IMG/VR virus record: IMGVR_UViG_3300032334_001937 | Span: 1-64,000 of that record | Origin: a virus | Strand: one strand, 5' to 3' | Length of the DNA stretch: 64,000 nt | In this document: positions 17,102 to 63,653 of the stretch, piece by piece | Layout of the letters: each line of letters starts with the position of its first letter | Numbering within the stretch: the stretch's first letter is position 1 | Program-made: the position numbers and the translations under genes | The notes under the pieces: model-generated | Database searches by the model: none | The model's input: only the letters and a program-made list of their open reading frames with translations | What the model was told of the DNA's origin: nothing

Positions 17102-17358
17102 ACATCACCCCATTGCTCTTTGCTCTTGTGTTTATTAAACTCTCGTGAAATTTCTCCACCTTCTAAGTATACACCACCCCAAACACCCCACTCTTTGCCT
17201 GACACACCGTTAGCAAAACATATTTTTGCAACAGGACATGAGGCACAAAAATTATCTATGTTTGATCTTAGTTCAACATCATCTTCGTATTTATCAAAAT
17301 ATAAATTTGTGTCTAATCCAAGACATTTAGCCTGATCTTTCCATAAATGTTGTTTCAA
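17071..17358 (-). CDS. whiB: WhiB-family Fe-S transcription factor
   Basis: W..QAKC...CASCPV...C and EWGVWGG. Confidence 0.9.
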   Translation of the reverse strand: MKQHLWKDQAKCLGLDTNLYFDKYEDDVELRSNIDNFCASCPVAKICFANGVSGKEWGVWGGVYLEGGEISREFNKHKSKEQWGDVWQSLTTETN

Positions 17359-55014: not shown

Positions 55015-55520
55015 TAGATCTCCGTAAACTCAATATTTATATCTACATAATCTGATAAAGATGTTCTCTTTGATAAAGTTTTTGCAAATGTTGTGATAAA
55101 AGCACTGTATGTTCTATATCCAGTTGCATCAGTTATTGTTGCTTCTGTCTGTGCAGTCTTAAAGTTATGCCCTGATTCATTTGGGACTGAACCAGCAGCA
55201 GGATCTGAAGCAAGCTTTGACTCAACAACCTTTAAATATATCGGCACACCAGCATTGGCATTATAAAATGATTCCATCCAGGCAGCACCGTAGTTACCAT
55301 CAGCTGTTTCTGATGATCTTGTTGGCAAGAATGTCCAGGCTGTTGATATTCTATGCTTTTTAGCAATAACATATTTTCTCATAGTACCGTTAGCCATACG
55401 TGTTGTTTGCTCAATTAAATCTACATCTATTTGTATTGGTTGTCTATTATGGTCAGTAAGCTTATACCAGGTTGACCCATTAAGGGAAACCTGTATACCC
55501 GCTTGAATTTTATATGCCAT
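55014..55520 (-). CDS. Distal tail-like protein
   Basis: Directly after the TMP; RMANGTMRKY motif. Confidence 0.75.
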   Translation of the reverse strand: MAYKIQAGIQVSLNGSTWYKLTDHNRQPIQIDVDLIEQTTRMANGTMRKYVIAKKHRISTAWTFLPTRSSETADGNYGAAWMESFYNANAGVPIYLKVVESKLASDPAAGSVPNESGHNFKTAQTEATITDATGYRTYSAFITTFAKTLSKRTSLSDYVDINIEFTEI

Positions 55521-58500
55521 TACATCATCACCTTATTTGTTTTGTTATTTTGTCTTTGTACCCTATCTAATCTTACCATAATCTCATCTGCAATTTCTTT
55601 CTTATTGAGGTCTGTTCCATTAATAATAAAGTGGTTTGTCATTCCTCCATCATTATAAGTTTTATTTTGATCTGCTGGAATAATACGTTCACCCTTGTGA
55701 ACCATTGCAAGAGTATCAGCAGGTACATAATCTGTTCCAACATCATATGAAGGAATATTAAATTTAACCATTCCACCTTTAGCAAATCCAAATTTTGATT
55801 TTGCTGCATCAATTATTTTTCCAAAATTGGGTCCAGAGTAACCTATTGTTCCTTTTGAAGTTATTTCTCCTCCGCCCTGAATAATTGTATTAAATTTTTC
55901 TGGATTAAATTCAGGATAAACAGTTTTATATTGATCTGGCAAGAAAAGCTCTGCTCTTCTATTTTTAGCCATATTTGTAGCGTTTGTATTTGGTGCTAAT
56001 GGTTCATATGTTCCAAATCCTATTGGCATAAATTTTATACCCTTTGCAAATTTAGAAAGATATGATGCTGTTGCTTTTGCTCTATTTAATGAAAGCAAGT
56101 CATTATCTACTCCACCACGTGAATCTGCATGTCCTTGAACAACTATAGACTTTATGTTATTATCAATTAATTGAGAAGCTAGTTTTTGAAGTTCTAGCCT
56201 TTGTTTTTTATTTAAATCATATGAATTAGTACTAAAGTTAGATCTTATTGGCGGAACTTTAATTTTAATTATTTCTTTATGCGCTTCTTGCCAGGCAGCT
56301 GCTGGACCCATCATTGTTCCGCCTTGATAGGTAGGTTTTACTTCACCTTGGAAATTTTTGGAATAATTAGTGACTTGTCCACCTCTTGCAAACTTAGGTT
56401 TATTAATATTTTGGAATGCATTTGGTTGATTCCATCTTGGTCCAGCTGTTCCAAAATGAGGTATATGTGGTGAAGGCAATGTTCTTTTTGCTTCAAATAC
56501 ATACTCATCTAATAACTTAGAAGCACTTGGTCCAACCCACTGTTGACTTGCTCCTTCTCCAATAAAATGACCACCTTCTGCTGGTATTTTAATTGCTAAA
56601 GGATTAATTGCTTTTAAAACAAATTCTGTATAAGCAGCAACATACTGTTCTTTAGCTGTTGCATCTTTGAAGTATCCACCAAGACCAAGGTCCATTAAGT
56701 TTTTTATTCCACGGACATCTTTGCCTAATATAACTTTTGCTATAGCACCAGCCTGTCCACCTCCTGTACCTCCTTGTGTTGCTATGACTTTAGCCCAGTC
56801 TAAATTGTCAGTAAATGATTTATGCATATCTGGTATCCAGGATTGACCTACATTTAACCCCTTATCAAATTCTTTAAATGGAGCTGCTTCTGGTGAATCA
56901 TATCTTGGTTCTGGTTTTCCAGATGCCTTAATTAAATCTACTGCATTTTCTTTCCATCTTGAGGTAAAATGTGACCAAGGAGCATCTTGGGTCATAGAGT
57001 TATATCCGAATTTATCCATCCAAGCTTTTCCATTTTGCAAAGCCTTATTTGGAACTGTTTTATGTCCTACAATATCAGCCATGTCCTTAAGGCTAAGACC
57101 TCTATAGACAACTTGATCTTCTCCCATTGGTTTTCTAGTTAATAATGAATTAATTACTCCCCAATCATCTTTTTGAGCATACATTGGTTTTTGAGTATAT
57201 AAATCAAGTGCATTAATTCCACCAGGTGGGGTGTCTGTTTTTCTTGATAATTTTAATAGCTTTAGAGCATCAGCTATTGTTGTTTTTGAATTTTCTATCA
57301 TAGATGGAGCATCTTCTGGTTTTGCCCAGGTGTGGTCCTTAAAGAATTTACCACTTTCAAGATCTTTTATTTTGGTTCTATGATCTGCTATCATTTGCTG
57401 ATATTTTTTAATTGATGAAACTGTATCTTCAGAAAGCTTTGATGTTTTAACGGCTTGTGCTTCTGCAAATGCTTTATTTTGCTGTATAACTCTTTGCATT
57501 ACATAACTATTACCCATTGATGGACGATACTGAGGAAGCTTAGGAACAAAGTTATCATCCATAGCAGCATGGACAGTAACTTTAGGAACAATGGCTGATT
57601 TTGTACCCATTCCTAATTTACCTGCAAGTCCTACAGCAGGCAATACTCCAAGCACATCTGCAGCAACGCCTAAGCCTTTATGTCCAAATATTTCAGGGCT
57701 TGTATTATTTTTTAAATTAAATGCTGATGTATAGCCAGATAGACCTTGTGCAGCTAGTAACGCAATTCTATCTTTTTCTGTTTGAGAAACTGCTGACTTA
57801 TAAGAAGAAACTCTTGGGTCAATTTTTGATGCACCCATACCCATCATTCCAGATAGGTATGAGGAAAACATATTTACTGGGTTAAATCTACTAAAGAAGT
57901 TTCCGTTTTTCTTTCCAACTGGTCCACCTGTAGCAAACTTCTTTGCATTTAGTTGATCAAAGAAACCTACGCCATATTTATCAACAGCACTTGCATTAAC
58001 AACATATTCTTTATTAGATAGCATTGCTGGAATAGAATCAGATGTTGTACTTCCTGGTCCAGAAATAAAACCGCCATCTGCTTTTTTAGTTGTATTTCTA
58101 TTGACTGGCTTTCCCTTTACACTTAATGTTTGAGGATTCCATTGCTGAATCACGCCAGCACCGTCTACAGCATACTGCTTTCCATTCCATTCAAATACAT
58201 AAACAGAGTCACCAGTACTTGTTCTTGTTACTCCACTTCGTTGCTGCAATGCCTTATCAGCTGCAGCGCCAACAGTCTTACCGTCTATAGCCCGTGTAGG
58301 TGTCATAGATCCAGCACCAGACACAACTACTACTGGAAGAGGATTACTTTTATCAAAATTAAACATTCTTGATATGCGATCAAGTGCACCCTTAATGTCT
58401 ATTGTTGGGGTTGCAACTGGAGCTGGTCCAGCAGATGCAATGATGTTATCTTTTTTATCTTTATCTGCCTGTAGTTTATCAACTTCATCTTGCTTTGCAG

Positions 58501-61500
58501 CAATTTGCTTTTCTAGAGCTGTTAGTGCATTTTGATTATTATAGTCTACTGTGTTATTAGCTTGTTGTTGTCTTAGCTGTTCTGCTAAAACATAATTTCC
58601 ATGGATCTTTGCATCTAAAATTTCTGCATCAAGGCTTGCCTGTTTTTGCAAGTAATCTTGCTGATTCTTTAACTCTGCTGTTGCATCTTGCTGAGCCTGC
58701 AATTTTTTCTGAAGAACTTTAAGCTCTGCCTTTGCAATTTCTAAAGCACTCTTGCTATTTGCCTTTTCTGCTGCCTTTAGATTAGCAACCTTTGCTGCAT
58801 AGTCTGCTCTGTCTTTTGCATTTTGTTTTTGTATGTCAGCATTTGTTTTTTCAAGGTCTTTTTTAACTGCATCTAAAATCTGCTTTTGTCTTGCTTCTTC
58901 AGTTTGACCTGGAGTCATAGGAACACTTTGTGCTGCCTTCAAGAATATCTGAGCCTCAGCAAAGCTTGCACCCAATGCTCTAAGTTTTGTTAGCTGTGCA
59001 CCAAGGGCTATGTCTGATTTATTTGCTGCAATAATTAAATACTGATATGCCTGAGCTGTTCCGCCAAGAGCCTTAGATAATGCGTTGGCCATGCGGATTG
59101 CATCTTCATAAGATGTTTTTGAATCTAGAATTCTGCTTGCAACTAATAGCGCTGCATCCGCTACTCTCTTTTGCTGCTTTGTCAAACCATCATATGCAAC
59201 ATCAAGGTTTGATAATGGTCTAGCAGCATTTCTTAATTTAGATATCCATGTACCAGTTGCAGTAGTTGAATTCTTTGTGCTTGTTGTAACAGAATCTATT
59301 GCCTTCTTTAAGTACTCAGTCTTTCCAGCATATGTAAGAAGAGTTGTAATTAAGTCTTTTACCTTTGATGGATCCATTCCATTTGCTACCTGTGCAGCAA
59401 CAAACTGTCTTACTGTTCCAACAACACTGCTCTCACTGCTCATTCCCTTTAGGCTGTCAGCTACAAGCTTTAGAGGATTATCACTCTTTAACTTATTAAT
59501 TGCATTAACACGTTTTTGAAGTTCACTTAATTCTTTATTTGTATCTTTGACTGATGTTGCAAATACGTGAATCTTTGCAGTCTGATCAAGCATTGTTCCA
59601 CCGAACATGCTAATTACATCAGCACTTGCTGTATAAGTTGCTTTTACAGTTGCTTCATGCTTTCTATGCATTTCCACTAATGATGTTATTCCAGCAGTAA
59701 CAAGTCCTATTGCAGCTCCAGCTGCAGCTCCCCATACACCAAACATTGCTCCCATAGCTGCCATATTTGCTGTTGATTGAGCTAATGCTTTTCCTGTAAA
59801 CTCTGGCAAAGCACTAAGAGCCATGCTTCCAACCATAAGTCCAGCACCAGCTGCCATGCCTCTGCCACTTAAACCAAATCTAGATTTTCCAGCATCTTTT
59901 GTTTTGTTTCCATTTTCTTTTCCAGCAGCTAATTTTTCTTGTTCAGTTAATGCAGCAACAATTGGAAGTGACATTGCATTCTCTGGCATGCTTGGTCCAA
60001 TTTGAGCTGGCCCCTGTGTTCTTGTTGCTACTCTTCTTTTCTTTAGTGCCTCTTTAGCTCCAACATCTACTGACTGTACAGCTTCTACACCAATCTTTTT
60101 ACCTGCTGCTGTTACAATCTTTTCATCAGCAATCATGCCTTCTGCAAGACCACCATCAATATACTTTCCAGTACGTTTTGATGCTTGAGAGTTTGAAGCA
60201 GTTTCTGCACCCTGTGCAACTCCCTTAGTAGCTCTTCTTCCAGTTTCTATTGCAACCTTTTCTGCAAATTTTATTAAACGATCATGTGCATTTGCAATAA
60301 TTGCTTTAGTTCTTACTTCAATTTCTTTTACACTTGCTGTAATTCCTGGCATGATGTGTGCTGCTTGAGCTCCAGTATATTCTTTTAGTGAATTTTCCTG
60401 TGCTCTTTTTCTTGCACGATTTAAAGCTATTCGTTGTGAAAGATATGACTTGCGCTCTTCTGGCATGTCTTTTGGTGGTAATGTTCCTAGCTCAGGCAAA
60501 ACATCTGGCAAAGTGTTTGGAACATTTTTCATTTGAAATTCGGGCTTAGTACCAGTTTCACTTGATTTACTTGGTCTTTCACCTTTTCTAAAAGCAAAAG
60601 GATTTAATCTTACTGCAAGAGCTTGTGCTTTTTCTCTAAAATCAATATAAGATTTTCCTAAGCTTGTTCTTGGAACAGAAGATCCAGTACCGCTTCCAAC
60701 CATTGCAACAGTTCTTATATCATCTATTGCGCTATTAATTGCTGCAGCTGCTTGTTTACCGCCAATATTAATTGTTTCAGCTTCTTTTCTCATTGCTGGA
60801 ACAACAATATTTTCAAGGTCTAAATCTGTTACTAAAGTTTTTCCTGATTTTTCTAATGCACTTATAGAAGACTCTATAAGTTTTTTGCCTGCAACTTCAA
60901 AATCTTTATGTAACGTTGGATCCTCAACACTTACTCCCATTGAGTCTGCCATTACTGCAAGAAGTGGAGATGCTGCTGCACCACCAGACTGACGAAGTGA
61001 TGCAATAACATCCTGCATGCTTGCTCCAGTTGAACTTCCTAGCTGTTGGTTAATCCAATCTTGTAAATATATGGTTGCATTTCTATATGCTTTAATCTCA
61101 ATGTCTTCAAGTGGTCCTGTTGTCCCGCCCTTTAGTTTTGTTCCACGACCTGTTGGGAATCCAGGTAGGTTATCTGCAACTAAAGAATTAATTAGATCTG
61201 GATGTTTTGAAACAACTGCTGCTGGGATGATTGCTTCACCATTAGAAATTCTTGCAATGATAGAATCTGAAGTTCCAGTTCCTGGGCCAGTCACAACTCC
61301 TGGTGTTCCAGTTGCAAACTTCTTGAGGGCTGGAGCCTTCATCATTCCAGGATTGCTCATAGCAAAAGTTTTTGCTGCAACTATTGCTCTTTCATATGCC
61401 ACTCTTAATTGATTGACTGCCCCTGCTTCTACAGTAAATTGCTGAGTAAGGGTTGCATGTGCCTGCTCAAGTGAGTGTGCTGCTGCTGCAGCATCAAGCT

Positions 61501-63310
61501 GTTCGCTTGTTAAATATTGTGTTTGTTCTCCAAGATTTTGGCTTTGGCCAGTAAGTCTTTGATATCCTGTTCTTAATGTAAGGAAAAGTTTCATTATGTT
61601 TGCAACACCGTTTGCAAGCAAACCAAATGTCATCAAAAGAATTGGACCAAGACCACCAATAACTCCAGCGGTAATTGCTACAAACTTTTTAGTGCCATCA
61701 GATAAGTTATTAAACTTATCAAGTACTTTAGTAACAAAATCAATAACTGGAGTAAATGCTTTCATGAACACTTCTCCTACTGGAGCAAGAGATGCTTTAA
61801 GCTTTGCAACTGCTGCTTGAAATTTAATTAATGCAGATGCTGATGTTACACCTAATTCTTTTTCGGTAAGGCTTGCAAGATTCCCTGCTGACTGACCTGC
61901 TAAATCAAGAACTCTTGATGCCTGATTTCCTGACTGAATAACATTCTTCATCAATGTTGAAATACGTGCAAACTGGAATTTACCAAACATTGTTTCAATT
62001 GCTCTTGCTCTAGCAAGTGGATCTAATCTATCAAGTTCTTTAGCAAACTCAACAACTGTTGCCTTAAGATTACCCTTGTTTTTATTTACAATTCCATTTA
62101 TATTAATTCCCATACTTGCAAGCATTTCATTTGCTTTTTTGCTTGGGTTAATTAAAGAGGCTAAGCCAGACTTTAGTGCGTTAGCACCTTCTGATGCATT
62201 AACTCCTCCTTCTTTCATTGCAGTAAGGAAGAAAGCTAAGTCTTTTACATCTCCACCAAGTGACTGAATTACTGGAGCTACCTTTGGAATAGCTGTTGTA
62301 ATATCATCAAGAGATGTTACAGTTTGGTTTTCTACTGCGTTAAGGAAGTCAATTGTTGTAGCAAGCTCTGTTGAAGAAATCTTAAAAGCATTTTGAAGAG
62401 ATATAGTTGTTTCAAGTGCTTGCTGTTGTTCAATTTGTCCAAGGATAGCAAGCTTAGTTGCTGCATCTGTTTGTGCAATTAAGTCTGCATTCTTAAAACC
62501 TGCTGCAGCTGCTTGAGAAGCAAGCTCTACTGTCTTAGATACTTCAACGCCATACTTTGTATACCCGTCAGCAAGTGCTCTGATATTCTTTAATGCAGCT
62601 TCTGTTTCTACTTGATTAGTACCAAGATCGCCATATACTTTTCTAAATCTAATTACTTCTGTTTCTAATGTCTTAAAAGACTTGGCTGCTGCCTGACCAA
62701 ATGCAGCAAGTGGTAGAGTAAAACCAACCATAAGCTGACGACCAGCCCACTGAGTATTTTTACCAAAGTTAAGAAGACTTGTTGATCCTTGTTTTATTAA
62801 CTGATTAAAGATTGCTTGCTTTTGAGCTGCTATCTGAGTTTGTGTACTCAGATTATTCATGTCAAGAGTTAATGGTCTGATAGCAATTGCCTTCATTGCT
62901 CCAGTTGCATCACGACCCATCTTGATGTATTGGGTCTGTAATGTCTTTACACGTTCTTCGGCTACCTTGCCAATTGTGTCAAATTCACTCTTAAATGCTT
63001 TACCAAATGTTTTTGTTGCTGCCCCAGCATATCTGAAGTACTCACGCATTGAGAGCTTATTGCCCTCAAGCGATGTAGTAAATGATTCTGCTGTTGTTTT
63101 TACTGTGCGGAGTTCTGCAGAGAAAGCACCAATAGCATTTACACTATTGACAAAATTTCTCTGCAGATCCCTCTGAGCAAGTGCTGCTGCTTCACTACTT
63201 TTAGCAACAGATGAGTGAAACTGAGATATCTGACGTTGTAGGGCCTTTAGTTGGTCCAATGCTGCAGACGTATCAATATTTACGCCAATATTAGCATTTA
63301 CATCAGACAT
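55520..63310 (-). CDS. Tape measure protein (2596 aa) with embedded ADP-ribosyltransferase-like and OmpA-like domains
   Basis: TP901-type TMP core (ASEGANALKSGL), TM segments, two GPGxxTSDSI modules, YRG / SFT / xKE ART motifs, GHAD...N..LS..RA...NRR OmpA motif. Confidence 0.92.
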   Translation of the reverse strand: MSDVNANIGVNIDTSAALDQLKALQRQISQFHSSVAKSSEAAALAQRDLQRNFVNSVNAIGAFSAELRTVKTTAESFTTSLEGNKLSMREYFRYAGAATKTFGKAFKSEFDTIGKVAEERVKTLQTQYIKMGRDATGAMKAIAIRPLTLDMNNLSTQTQIAAQKQAIFNQLIKQGSTSLLNFGKNTQWAGRQLMVGFTLPLAAFGQAAAKSFKTLETEVIRFRKVYGDLGTNQVETEAALKNIRALADGYTKYGVEVSKTVELASQAAAAGFKNADLIAQTDAATKLAILGQIEQQQALETTISLQNAFKISSTELATTIDFLNAVENQTVTSLDDITTAIPKVAPVIQSLGGDVKDLAFFLTAMKEGGVNASEGANALKSGLASLINPSKKANEMLASMGININGIVNKNKGNLKATVVEFAKELDRLDPLARARAIETMFGKFQFARISTLMKNVIQSGNQASRVLDLAGQSAGNLASLTEKELGVTSASALIKFQAAVAKLKASLAPVGEVFMKAFTPVIDFVTKVLDKFNNLSDGTKKFVAITAGVIGGLGPILLMTFGLLANGVANIMKLFLTLRTGYQRLTGQSQNLGEQTQYLTSEQLDAAAAAHSLEQAHATLTQQFTVEAGAVNQLRVAYERAIVAAKTFAMSNPGMMKAPALKKFATGTPGVVTGPGTGTSDSIIARISNGEAIIPAAVVSKHPDLINSLVADNLPGFPTGRGTKLKGGTTGPLEDIEIKAYRNATIYLQDWINQQLGSSTGASMQDVIASLRQSGGAAASPLLAVMADSMGVSVEDPTLHKDFEVAGKKLIESSISALEKSGKTLVTDLDLENIVVPAMRKEAETINIGGKQAAAAINSAIDDIRTVAMVGSGTGSSVPRTSLGKSYIDFREKAQALAVRLNPFAFRKGERPSKSSETGTKPEFQMKNVPNTLPDVLPELGTLPPKDMPEERKSYLSQRIALNRARKRAQENSLKEYTGAQAAHIMPGITASVKEIEVRTKAIIANAHDRLIKFAEKVAIETGRRATKGVAQGAETASNSQASKRTGKYIDGGLAEGMIADEKIVTAAGKKIGVEAVQSVDVGAKEALKKRRVATRTQGPAQIGPSMPENAMSLPIVAALTEQEKLAAGKENGNKTKDAGKSRFGLSGRGMAAGAGLMVGSMALSALPEFTGKALAQSTANMAAMGAMFGVWGAAAGAAIGLVTAGITSLVEMHRKHEATVKATYTASADVISMFGGTMLDQTAKIHVFATSVKDTNKELSELQKRVNAINKLKSDNPLKLVADSLKGMSSESSVVGTVRQFVAAQVANGMDPSKVKDLITTLLTYAGKTEYLKKAIDSVTTSTKNSTTATGTWISKLRNAARPLSNLDVAYDGLTKQQKRVADAALLVASRILDSKTSYEDAIRMANALSKALGGTAQAYQYLIIAANKSDIALGAQLTKLRALGASFAEAQIFLKAAQSVPMTPGQTEEARQKQILDAVKKDLEKTNADIQKQNAKDRADYAAKVANLKAAEKANSKSALEIAKAELKVLQKKLQAQQDATAELKNQQDYLQKQASLDAEILDAKIHGNYVLAEQLRQQQANNTVDYNNQNALTALEKQIAAKQDEVDKLQADKDKKDNIIASAGPAPVATPTIDIKGALDRISRMFNFDKSNPLPVVVVSGAGSMTPTRAIDGKTVGAAADKALQQRSGVTRTSTGDSVYVFEWNGKQYAVDGAGVIQQWNPQTLSVKGKPVNRNTTKKADGGFISGPGSTTSDSIPAMLSNKEYVVNASAVDKYGVGFFDQLNAKKFATGGPVGKKNGNFFSRFNPVNMFSSYLSGMMGMGASKIDPRVSSYKSAVSQTEKDRIALLAAQGLSGYTSAFNLKNNTSPEIFGHKGLGVAADVLGVLPAVGLAGKLGMGTKSAIVPKVTVHAAMDDNFVPKLPQYRPSMGNSYVMQRVIQQNKAFAEAQAVKTSKLSEDTVSSIKKYQQMIADHRTKIKDLESGKFFKDHTWAKPEDAPSMIENSKTTIADALKLLKLSRKTDTPPGGINALDLYTQKPMYAQKDDWGVINSLLTRKPMGEDQVVYRGLSLKDMADIVGHKTVPNKALQNGKAWMDKFGYNSMTQDAPWSHFTSRWKENAVDLIKASGKPEPRYDSPEAAPFKEFDKGLNVGQSWIPDMHKSFTDNLDWAKVIATQGGTGGGQAGAIAKVILGKDVRGIKNLMDLGLGGYFKDATAKEQYVAAYTEFVLKAINPLAIKIPAEGGHFIGEGASQQWVGPSASKLLDEYVFEAKRTLPSPHIPHFGTAGPRWNQPNAFQNINKPKFARGGQVTNYSKNFQGEVKPTYQGGTMMGPAAAWQEAHKEIIKIKVPPIRSNFSTNSYDLNKKQRLELQKLASQLIDNNIKSIVVQGHADSRGGVDNDLLSLNRAKATASYLSKFAKGIKFMPIGFGTYEPLAPNTNATNMAKNRRAELFLPDQYKTVYPEFNPEKFNTIIQGGGEITSKGTIGYSGPNFGKIIDAAKSKFGFAKGGMVKFNIPSYDVGTDYVPADTLAMVHKGERIIPADQNKTYNDGGMTNHFIINGTDLNKKEIADEIMVRLDRVQRQNNKTNKVMM

Positions 63311-63332: not shown

Positions 63333-63653
63333 TTATTCAGCTGGTAAAACGTTGACCAGTGAACCAAGCTCAATGCCTGATGCTGCTTCAACAATTTTAT
63401 AAACAGTTGGAAGGTCAAGAATTTCTTCCAATGTTGCCAAATCTTTTGCCAGTTCTGGCTTGTACTGCTCCATAGCAATTTGAACACACTCAATCAAAAT
63501 ATTCATTGATTTTTCGTTGTTGTCTGCGACAGTAGCTATACCCTCAAACTTCTTCATAAATGGGCGGAGCAAAGAAATTTTTAGAGGCTTAACCTCAATC
63601 TTTGTACCGTCCATAAGAATAAGTTCATTACCCTCATGTACTTTCGTTGCCAT
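63333..63653 (-). CDS. Tail assembly chaperone
   Basis: Immediately upstream of the TMP; AGGAGG SD; own TGCTATAAT. Confidence 0.7.
   Translation of the reverse strand: MATKVHEGNELILMDGTKIEVKPLKISLLRPFMKKFEGIATVADNNEKSMNILIECVQIAMEQYKPELAKDLATLEEILDLPTVYKIVEAASGIELGSLVNVLPAE

Follow-up and report, generated by a model that had tools for sequence, protein, structure and literature searches.

A predicted R-S-E ADP-ribosyltransferase domain in an exchangeable cassette of a phage tape measure protein

The DNA analysed here (the window) comprises 64,000 nucleotides, positions 1 to 64,000 of IMG/VR record IMGVR_UViG_3300032334_001937, from an uncultured phage. It encodes a tape measure protein (TMP) of 2,596 amino acids (aa; window 55520..63310; this and all coordinates below are for the minus strand). 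Close to the C-terminal end of this TMP lies a domain (aa ~2020-2285; 56456..57253) that clearly has, in its predicted structures, the ADP-ribosyltransferase (ART) fold of the C2/C3-like R-S-E type. Our preferred reading, held with moderate confidence, is that the domain is a catalytically competent R-S-E mono-ADP-ribosyltransferase in an exchangeable cargo cassette of the TMP, and would be brought in with the virion to modify a host protein.

Predicted fold and conserved residues

An AlphaFold2 model of aa 2000-2290 (model 1), built on 22 sequences, reached a mean pLDDT (predicted local distance difference test) of 86.4 and a pTM (predicted template modelling score) of 0.80. In a Foldseek search of the PDB its top matches were only ARTs of the C3, VIP2, iota, CDTa, C2-I and Certhrax types (E 1e-5 to 5e-4, probability 1.0), and VIA-align gave Z 12-14 for the best matches over model residues 22-278, with 144-158 residues aligned at 2.4-3.9 Å. 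A VIA search, which was exhaustive over 48,161 PDB representatives and independent of Foldseek, placed R-S-E ARTs or ART-like domains at ranks 1-19 (Z 9.3-13.9), the next entry being SidE at 5.9. The 19 entries are VIP2, a Listeria ART-ARH toxin, CPILE-a, C3bot2, C3stau2, Certhrax (two entries), C2-I, C3larvin, ExoS, ART2.2, Vis, Tre1, domain 2 of anthrax lethal factor (LF), XopAI (two entries), SpvB, HopU1 and a Yersinia RHS toxin. Toxins that act as NAD+ glycohydrolases (NADases) and DNA- or RNA-directed ARTs scored only Z 2.8-4.4 (Tne2 2.9-4.4, Tse6 2.8, Scabin 3.7-4.0, RhsP2 3.0, DarT 2.8). The viral predicted structures matched were phage ARTs, ModB, and MuF- or portal-ART and 'minor capsid' fusions.

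Model 2 was of a 215-aa homologue (L017:759-1403) without the insert that separates the Arg strand from the S-x-T strand in the TMP of the window (aa ~2084-2149; 56864..57061). It had a pLDDT of 80.5 and retrieved the same 19 entries (Z 8.4-12.1) over nearly its whole length. Since the fold is found in this insert-less homologue, the insert, which was modelled with high confidence in model 1, is an added, optional subdomain.

The predicted domain has a split β-sheet core and an N-terminal helical lobe. The conserved Arg lies in the first core strand (residues 67-72 in model 1 and 66-70 in model 2), S-x-T ends a strand, after which comes a helix as in ARTs (165-168/171-180 and 94-97/100-109, respectively), and the invariant Glu opens a later strand (222-225 and 147-150). 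An earlier note on this DNA, drawn up from the letters alone, had proposed an R-S-E ART at this site, and the split β-sheet that it expected of such a domain is present in the predicted structure.

All of the motifs quoted in that note occur in a single frame of the TMP open reading frame (ORF), and its numbering of R2070, S2165 and E2221 is right. ALDLYT (aa 2034) and INSLL (aa 2053) precede VVYRG (aa 2067), which contains R2070 (57101..57103); this Arg of the YRG motif, on the first core strand, is the candidate residue for NAD binding. HKSFT follows at aa 2163; its S2165 (56816-56818) begins S2165-F-T2167 (56810..56818), the equivalent of the S-T-S motif. Between the helix after this motif and the next strand is a GGTGGG loop (aa 2180-2185; 56756..56773), for which we propose a putative role in binding the NAD phosphates. 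IAKVIL (aa 2190) and AKEQYV (aa 2219) come next, the latter with E2221 (56648..56650), the candidate catalytic residue and second Glu of ExE. The note had tied E2221 to TEFVL, and this part does not hold: TEFVL begins at aa 2228, and its Glu is E2229, which varies among homologues. The accompanying reading of an atypical A-x-E was correct (A2219-K-E2221).

To collect homologues, we ran an exhaustive phmmer search over 1.84 billion representatives and searched IMG/VR for loci. R2070, S2165-x-T2167 and E2221 are unchanged across about 35 homologues. In the alignments, of 18-22 sequences, R2070, S2165, T2167, E2221 and the Gly-rich loop were invariant even though the domains share only 29-65% identity with the query. 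R2070 lies in [YF]R[GA]LS and was unchanged in every homologue that covers the column. The middle residue of S-x-T is F, I, V or T across the family. Within the GGTxGG loop, T2182, G2184 and G2185 were invariant in the family alignments; a near-invariant DEY motif (E2269/Y2270) and several alanines are also conserved. At [Q/E]-x-E the second Glu, E2221, is invariant and opens the strand at 222-225, while the position two residues earlier holds A, D, Y or S and never a conserved Q/E, so that the first position is indeed atypical. The long insert after YRG, which the note had also remarked on, is shortened in three homologues (P0006, P0008 and P0012) and missing from others (P0024, P0025 and L013-L017). 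Given this invariance of R, S and E on the canonical strands of the model, and the predicted ART fold of the region, the motif pattern is beyond chance.

Sequence searches did not find this relationship. Neither hmmscan of the domain against Pfam and NCBIfam nor phmmer against PDB sequences returned an ART at E up to 10, and Pfam, including ADPrib_exo_Tox (PF03496), matched neither the query nor any of the 22 family members at the same limit. A PF03496 search over the whole phage genome found nothing, and Pfam gave no ART match over the C-terminal 1,300-1,800 aa of six homologous giant ORFs. An hmmsearch of the PDB with the family profile gave weak, chance-level matches only, and an hhalign comparison of the family with T4 Alt detected no homology (probability 0.1). 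In the protein atlas, DUF4765, ADPrib_exo_Tox, Mod_ADP_RT and DRAT came up only as leads below threshold (0.80-0.88). DUF4765 has been linked to CNF toxins in the literature; the CNFy D4-5 structure scored only Z 3.1 (VIA) against the ART domain model. The domain is thus an ART sequence family outside Pfam that current profile libraries miss. One candidate was rejected: a P-loop-like match of GGTGGG...AVAKI to an ATP-binding protein (E 0.027) lacks the Walker lysine and Ser/Thr, and falls in a region whose predicted fold is that of an ART.

Restriction to tape measure proteins and cassette exchange

The carrier of the domain is a genuine TMP. PhageMin_Tail (PF10145) matches aa 252-443 (Pfam, E 3e-26), and there are matches to nine PHROG TMP families over the N-terminal 600-850 aa, at E 4e-16 or better (best 4e-96). 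In addition to this core domain, the protein is very long and mostly helical, and its gene follows those for the tail chaperones and precedes the distal tail genes. The ART pattern therefore sits inside a TMP, as the earlier note had it.

The domain is rare and was found only in TMPs. Just 23 of the 1.84 billion representatives match it, most of them proteins of 1,700-3,450 aa; the remaining short matches look like fragments, apparently from ORFs that end at contig edges. In IMG/VR there were 16 loci, and in all of them the domain lies near the C-terminus of a TMP-like giant ORF, with 70-140 aa (857 aa in one case) between the domain and the end of the ORF. Where the N-terminus of the giant ORF is present, it is a TMP core like that of the query. 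No free-standing, full-length gene for the domain was seen among the homologues, and every homologue of judgeable length places it within a giant TMP. No relatives were detected in GenBank phages (megablast and tblastn, 50,697 records) or in 185,579 species genomes; from the latter result, prophage copies of the domain are not known.

Three lines of evidence show that the module behaves as a mobile cargo cassette. Firstly, it is rare even among close relatives of this TMP. At E 1e-20 or better, over 4,462 proteins are related to the TMP core (aa 1-720), and the family is also present in at least 593 IMG/VR stretches. The best 120 of these proteins are 68-99% identical in the core and vary in length from 1,665 to 3,383 aa; the ART domain occurs in only three of these 120 closest TMPs. 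Secondly, it is replaced as a block. The closest TMP that is not identical (P0027; 2,261 aa, encoded on an ENA contig of 110,665 bp) is 89% identical to the query over aa 1-1981 and 82% identical over aa 2507-2596, and between these regions an unrelated segment of 219 aa (its aa 1953-2171; also in P0048) replaces aa 1982-2506 of the query. This segment had no profile similarity to the ART family by hhalign. Thirdly, identities of the ART domain and of the TMP core are discordant, which indicates that the cassette has moved between TMP genes: ART and core identities are 63% and 39% in L006 and 54% and 34% in L002, and the order is reversed in L010-L012 (30-34% and 61%). A uniform definition of the slot by two anchors fitted only 36 of the 120 TMPs, and we use the slot qualitatively.

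Delimited by the comparison with P0027, the exchangeable cassette (aa 1982-2506; 55793..57367) consists of the ART domain and an OmpA-like peptidoglycan-binding domain (aa 2359-2451; 55958..56236; Pfam PF00691, E 2e-11, above cut-off). The OmpA-like domain was absent from the other ART-bearing TMPs at the loci examined, and looks like a second, separately acquired insert. Downstream of the cassette is a conserved C-terminal module (aa 2507-2596; 55523..55792), which starts from FAKGG and is also found in several ART-bearing TMPs. The FAKGG motif, at aa 2509, is the right border of the replacement in P0027.

A junction module of FAxGG followed by GPGxxTSDSI.A..SN.E... occurs in the TMP twice in full, at aa 665-722 (61145-61318) and aa 1744-1797 (57920-58081), and once as a C-terminal variant, the module at aa 2507-2596. 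A bare FARGG also follows the ART domain at aa 2307. These FAxGG junctions could be putative sites of recombination or cleavage. More generally, this TMP family is abundant in metagenomes, with the first ~720 aa highly conserved and a C-terminal third that is mosaic and variable in length.

Proposed delivery and competing explanations

How might a domain in this position act? In a TMP, the C-terminal end lies at the tip of the tail and is the first part to exit. On our preferred reading, the ART domain would be built into the virion as part of the TMP, and the C-terminal region would be expelled first when the tail opens, whereupon the OmpA-like domain would engage peptidoglycan. The ART domain, possibly released by cleavage at the FAxGG junctions and possibly refolding, would then be passed to the host cytoplasm through a channel made by the TMP, and would there ADP-ribosylate a host protein, with NAD+ taken from the host, as soon as infection begins. 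The missing first ExE residue makes the acceptor unpredictable.

The TMP contains two hydrophobic segments of interest here: a glycine-zipper region at aa 1153-1212 (59675..59854), identified by hydropathy and [GAS]xxxGxxx[GAS] scans, and a Gly-rich segment just upstream of the cassette at aa 1879-1897 (57620..57676; Kyte-Doolittle mean 1.69 over 19 residues). The TMP of T5 is cleaved; its C-terminal, enzymatic part is the first to be released into the periplasm, and what remains uses its hydrophobic segments to form a channel (PMC10038345). Membrane permeabilisation and toxin translocation have been associated with glycine-zipper segments, both in TMPs and in the type VI secretion system effector Tde1 (PMC10240207), and by analogy the region at aa 1153-1212 may have a channel-forming role. 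It is from these two precedents, and from the hydrophobic segments of the TMP, that we propose delivery through the tail.

Several points weigh against the preferred reading. None of the sequence methods ties the domain to a known ART family (Pfam, NCBIfam and PDB at E up to 10; hhalign). Lack of conservation at the first ExE position may mean a different chemistry. The predicted arrangement of R, S and E around an NAD pocket follows from strand order and conservation rather than from residue-level superposition. NAD+ is cytoplasmic, while the adjoining OmpA-like domain should act in the wall, and the route of translocation between the two is our inference. Finally, domain 2 of anthrax LF (Z 10.3) is an inactive ART-like domain, so the fold alone is no proof of activity.

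This last point raises an alternative, which we regard as unlikely, that the module is a dead ART fold with a structural or binding function in the tail tip or the ejection conduit, much like the inactive, VIP2-like domain 2 of LF. The presence of LF domain 2 among the structural neighbours, the unconserved first position of ExE and the failure of any sequence family to recognise the domain would all fit. However, R, S-x-T, E and the Gly-rich loop remain invariant in homologues that are as little as 29% (and at most 65%) identical to the query, and a module that is optional and horizontally exchanged is not what would be expected of a structural part of the tail.

The missing Q/E bears on a second alternative. 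In characterised R-S-E transferases, the Q/E of Q/E-x-E helps to select the acceptor, and its absence here could mean that the domain is an NADase, which on entry would drain or alter the NAD+ pool of the host. We consider this quite unlikely, since the structural neighbours with Z >9 are almost all protein-targeting transferases and the NADase toxins score far lower (Tne2 and Tse6, above); depletion of NAD+ would probably also harm replication of the phage.

A third explanation, which we think improbable, keeps the enzyme active but places its action late in infection, in the producer cell; its substrates there would be host or phage proteins, perhaps tail components or the enzyme itself, and it would not serve as an injected effector. 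The TMP is made in a cytoplasm that contains NAD+, and a folded domain of 30 kDa would not have to be moved across a membrane. The phage genome also contains no recognisable macro or ARH-type hydrolase that might reverse the modification. Set against this, every judgeable homologue is embedded near the tip-proximal end of a TMP, with no free-standing full-length gene, and incorporation into the virion therefore seems to matter. That the motifs are a chance resemblance in a non-ART sequence, as the lack of a sequence match to any ART family might suggest, is hardly credible and effectively refuted by the VIA searches with both models: two independent models and three structure searches had only ARTs on top, and the motif residues are invariant.

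Returning to the preferred reading of an injected mono-ADP-ribosyltransferase, fold and triad place the domain with the C2/C3-like R-S-E ARTs (VIP2, iota Ia/CPILE-a, CDTa, C2-I, C3bot/C3stau, Certhrax, ExoS/ExoT, Vis and Tre1), with which it shares a common predicted fold (Z 11-14 over ~145-158 aligned residues) and the order of elements: an N-terminal helical lobe, the Arg strand, the S-x-T strand and helix, and the strand initiated by Glu. It differs from them in having no detectable sequence similarity, S-x-T in place of S-T-S, a variable first ExE residue, an invariant GGTxGG loop and an optional 65-aa insert, and in being carried by a phage TMP rather than being a secreted toxin.

Functionally, the closest parallels would be T4 Alt and the MuF-ART fusions, although both have a different carrier. 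T4 Alt is a virion-packaged ART that is injected with the DNA. The domain described here would resemble it as a phage ART that travels in the particle and acts when infection begins; however, Alt is an internal protein of the head and is not homologous in sequence by hhalign, whereas the present domain is part of a tail TMP. Fusions of MuF or portal proteins resemble the TMP in having a variable toxin or ART domain C-terminal to a conserved virion protein, but theirs is a head protein and not one of the tail lumen. For MuF-ART fusions, including the EFV toxin, injection has been proposed, and toxin-bearing MuF genes are almost confined to temperate phages (PMC5576092); the TMP ART domain, in contrast, has no relative in the species genomes searched. 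The C-terminal peptidase of T5 pb2 is similarly an enzymatic module in the C-terminal, tip-proximal part of a TMP (PMC10038345).

The only enzymes known to be built into TMPs are cell-wall hydrolases. The TMP of mycobacteriophage TM4, for example, has an Rpf-like motif. The modules of T5 pb2 and TM4 attack peptidoglycan outside the membrane, whereas an ART requires NAD+ and hence a cytoplasmic site. Full-text searches of a library of papers turned up none that describes a TMP with an ART or toxin domain; the particle-borne phage ARTs known (T4 Alt and MuF fusions) are from the head. If our reading is correct, a cytoplasm-acting, NAD-dependent enzyme would travel on a protein that exits the tail ahead of the DNA and provide a different route to immediate host takeover or counter-defence, and a TMP would be able to carry cargo the size of a folded domain across the membrane. 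Metagenomes contain thousands of members of this TMP family, with mosaic C-terminal thirds, so it is likely that further cargoes have gone unrecognised. Going further, and only tentatively, the C-terminal third of this family may be a general slot for effector delivery (an 'evolved TMP', by analogy with evolved VgrG/Hcp or MuF toxins), in which cassettes bracketed by repeated FAxGG junction modules are swapped by recombination. At ejection such cassettes would come free of the TMP and pass through its glycine-zipper channel to the cytoplasm before the DNA does, and the ART would disable a host target or defence within seconds of adsorption.

Genomic setting of the tape measure gene

The source genome is a complete IMG/VR record of 112,019 bp with direct terminal repeats. 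In the direction of transcription, the gene order around the TMP is head protease, capsid protein, head-tail adaptor, immunoglobulin (Ig)-domain protein, two chaperone-like genes, TMP, a gene for a 168-aa protein, and a minor tail protein of 1,461 aa. The Ig-domain protein upstream of the chaperone-like genes is probably the tail tube protein. This gene region is a siphovirus-type head-tail module, and as no sheath family was matched anywhere in the phage genome, the tail is probably long and non-contractile.

A WhiB-family gene, which passes the Pfam cut-off (E 1e-11), lies at 17170-17343. Since WhiB is typical of actinobacteria and of the phages that infect them, an actinobacterial host is probable. 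This pointer stands despite a G+C content of ~35-40% in the window.

Just upstream of the TMP gene, an ORF of 106 aa (63333-63653) matches phrog_10504. The next ORF upstream, of 240 aa (63685-64407 in genome coordinates, minus strand), matches phrog_10504 in its N-terminal half and phrog_10474 in its C-terminal half. As phrog_10504 is matched in both ORFs, the short and long chaperone-like forms are separate genes rather than products of one frameshifted locus.

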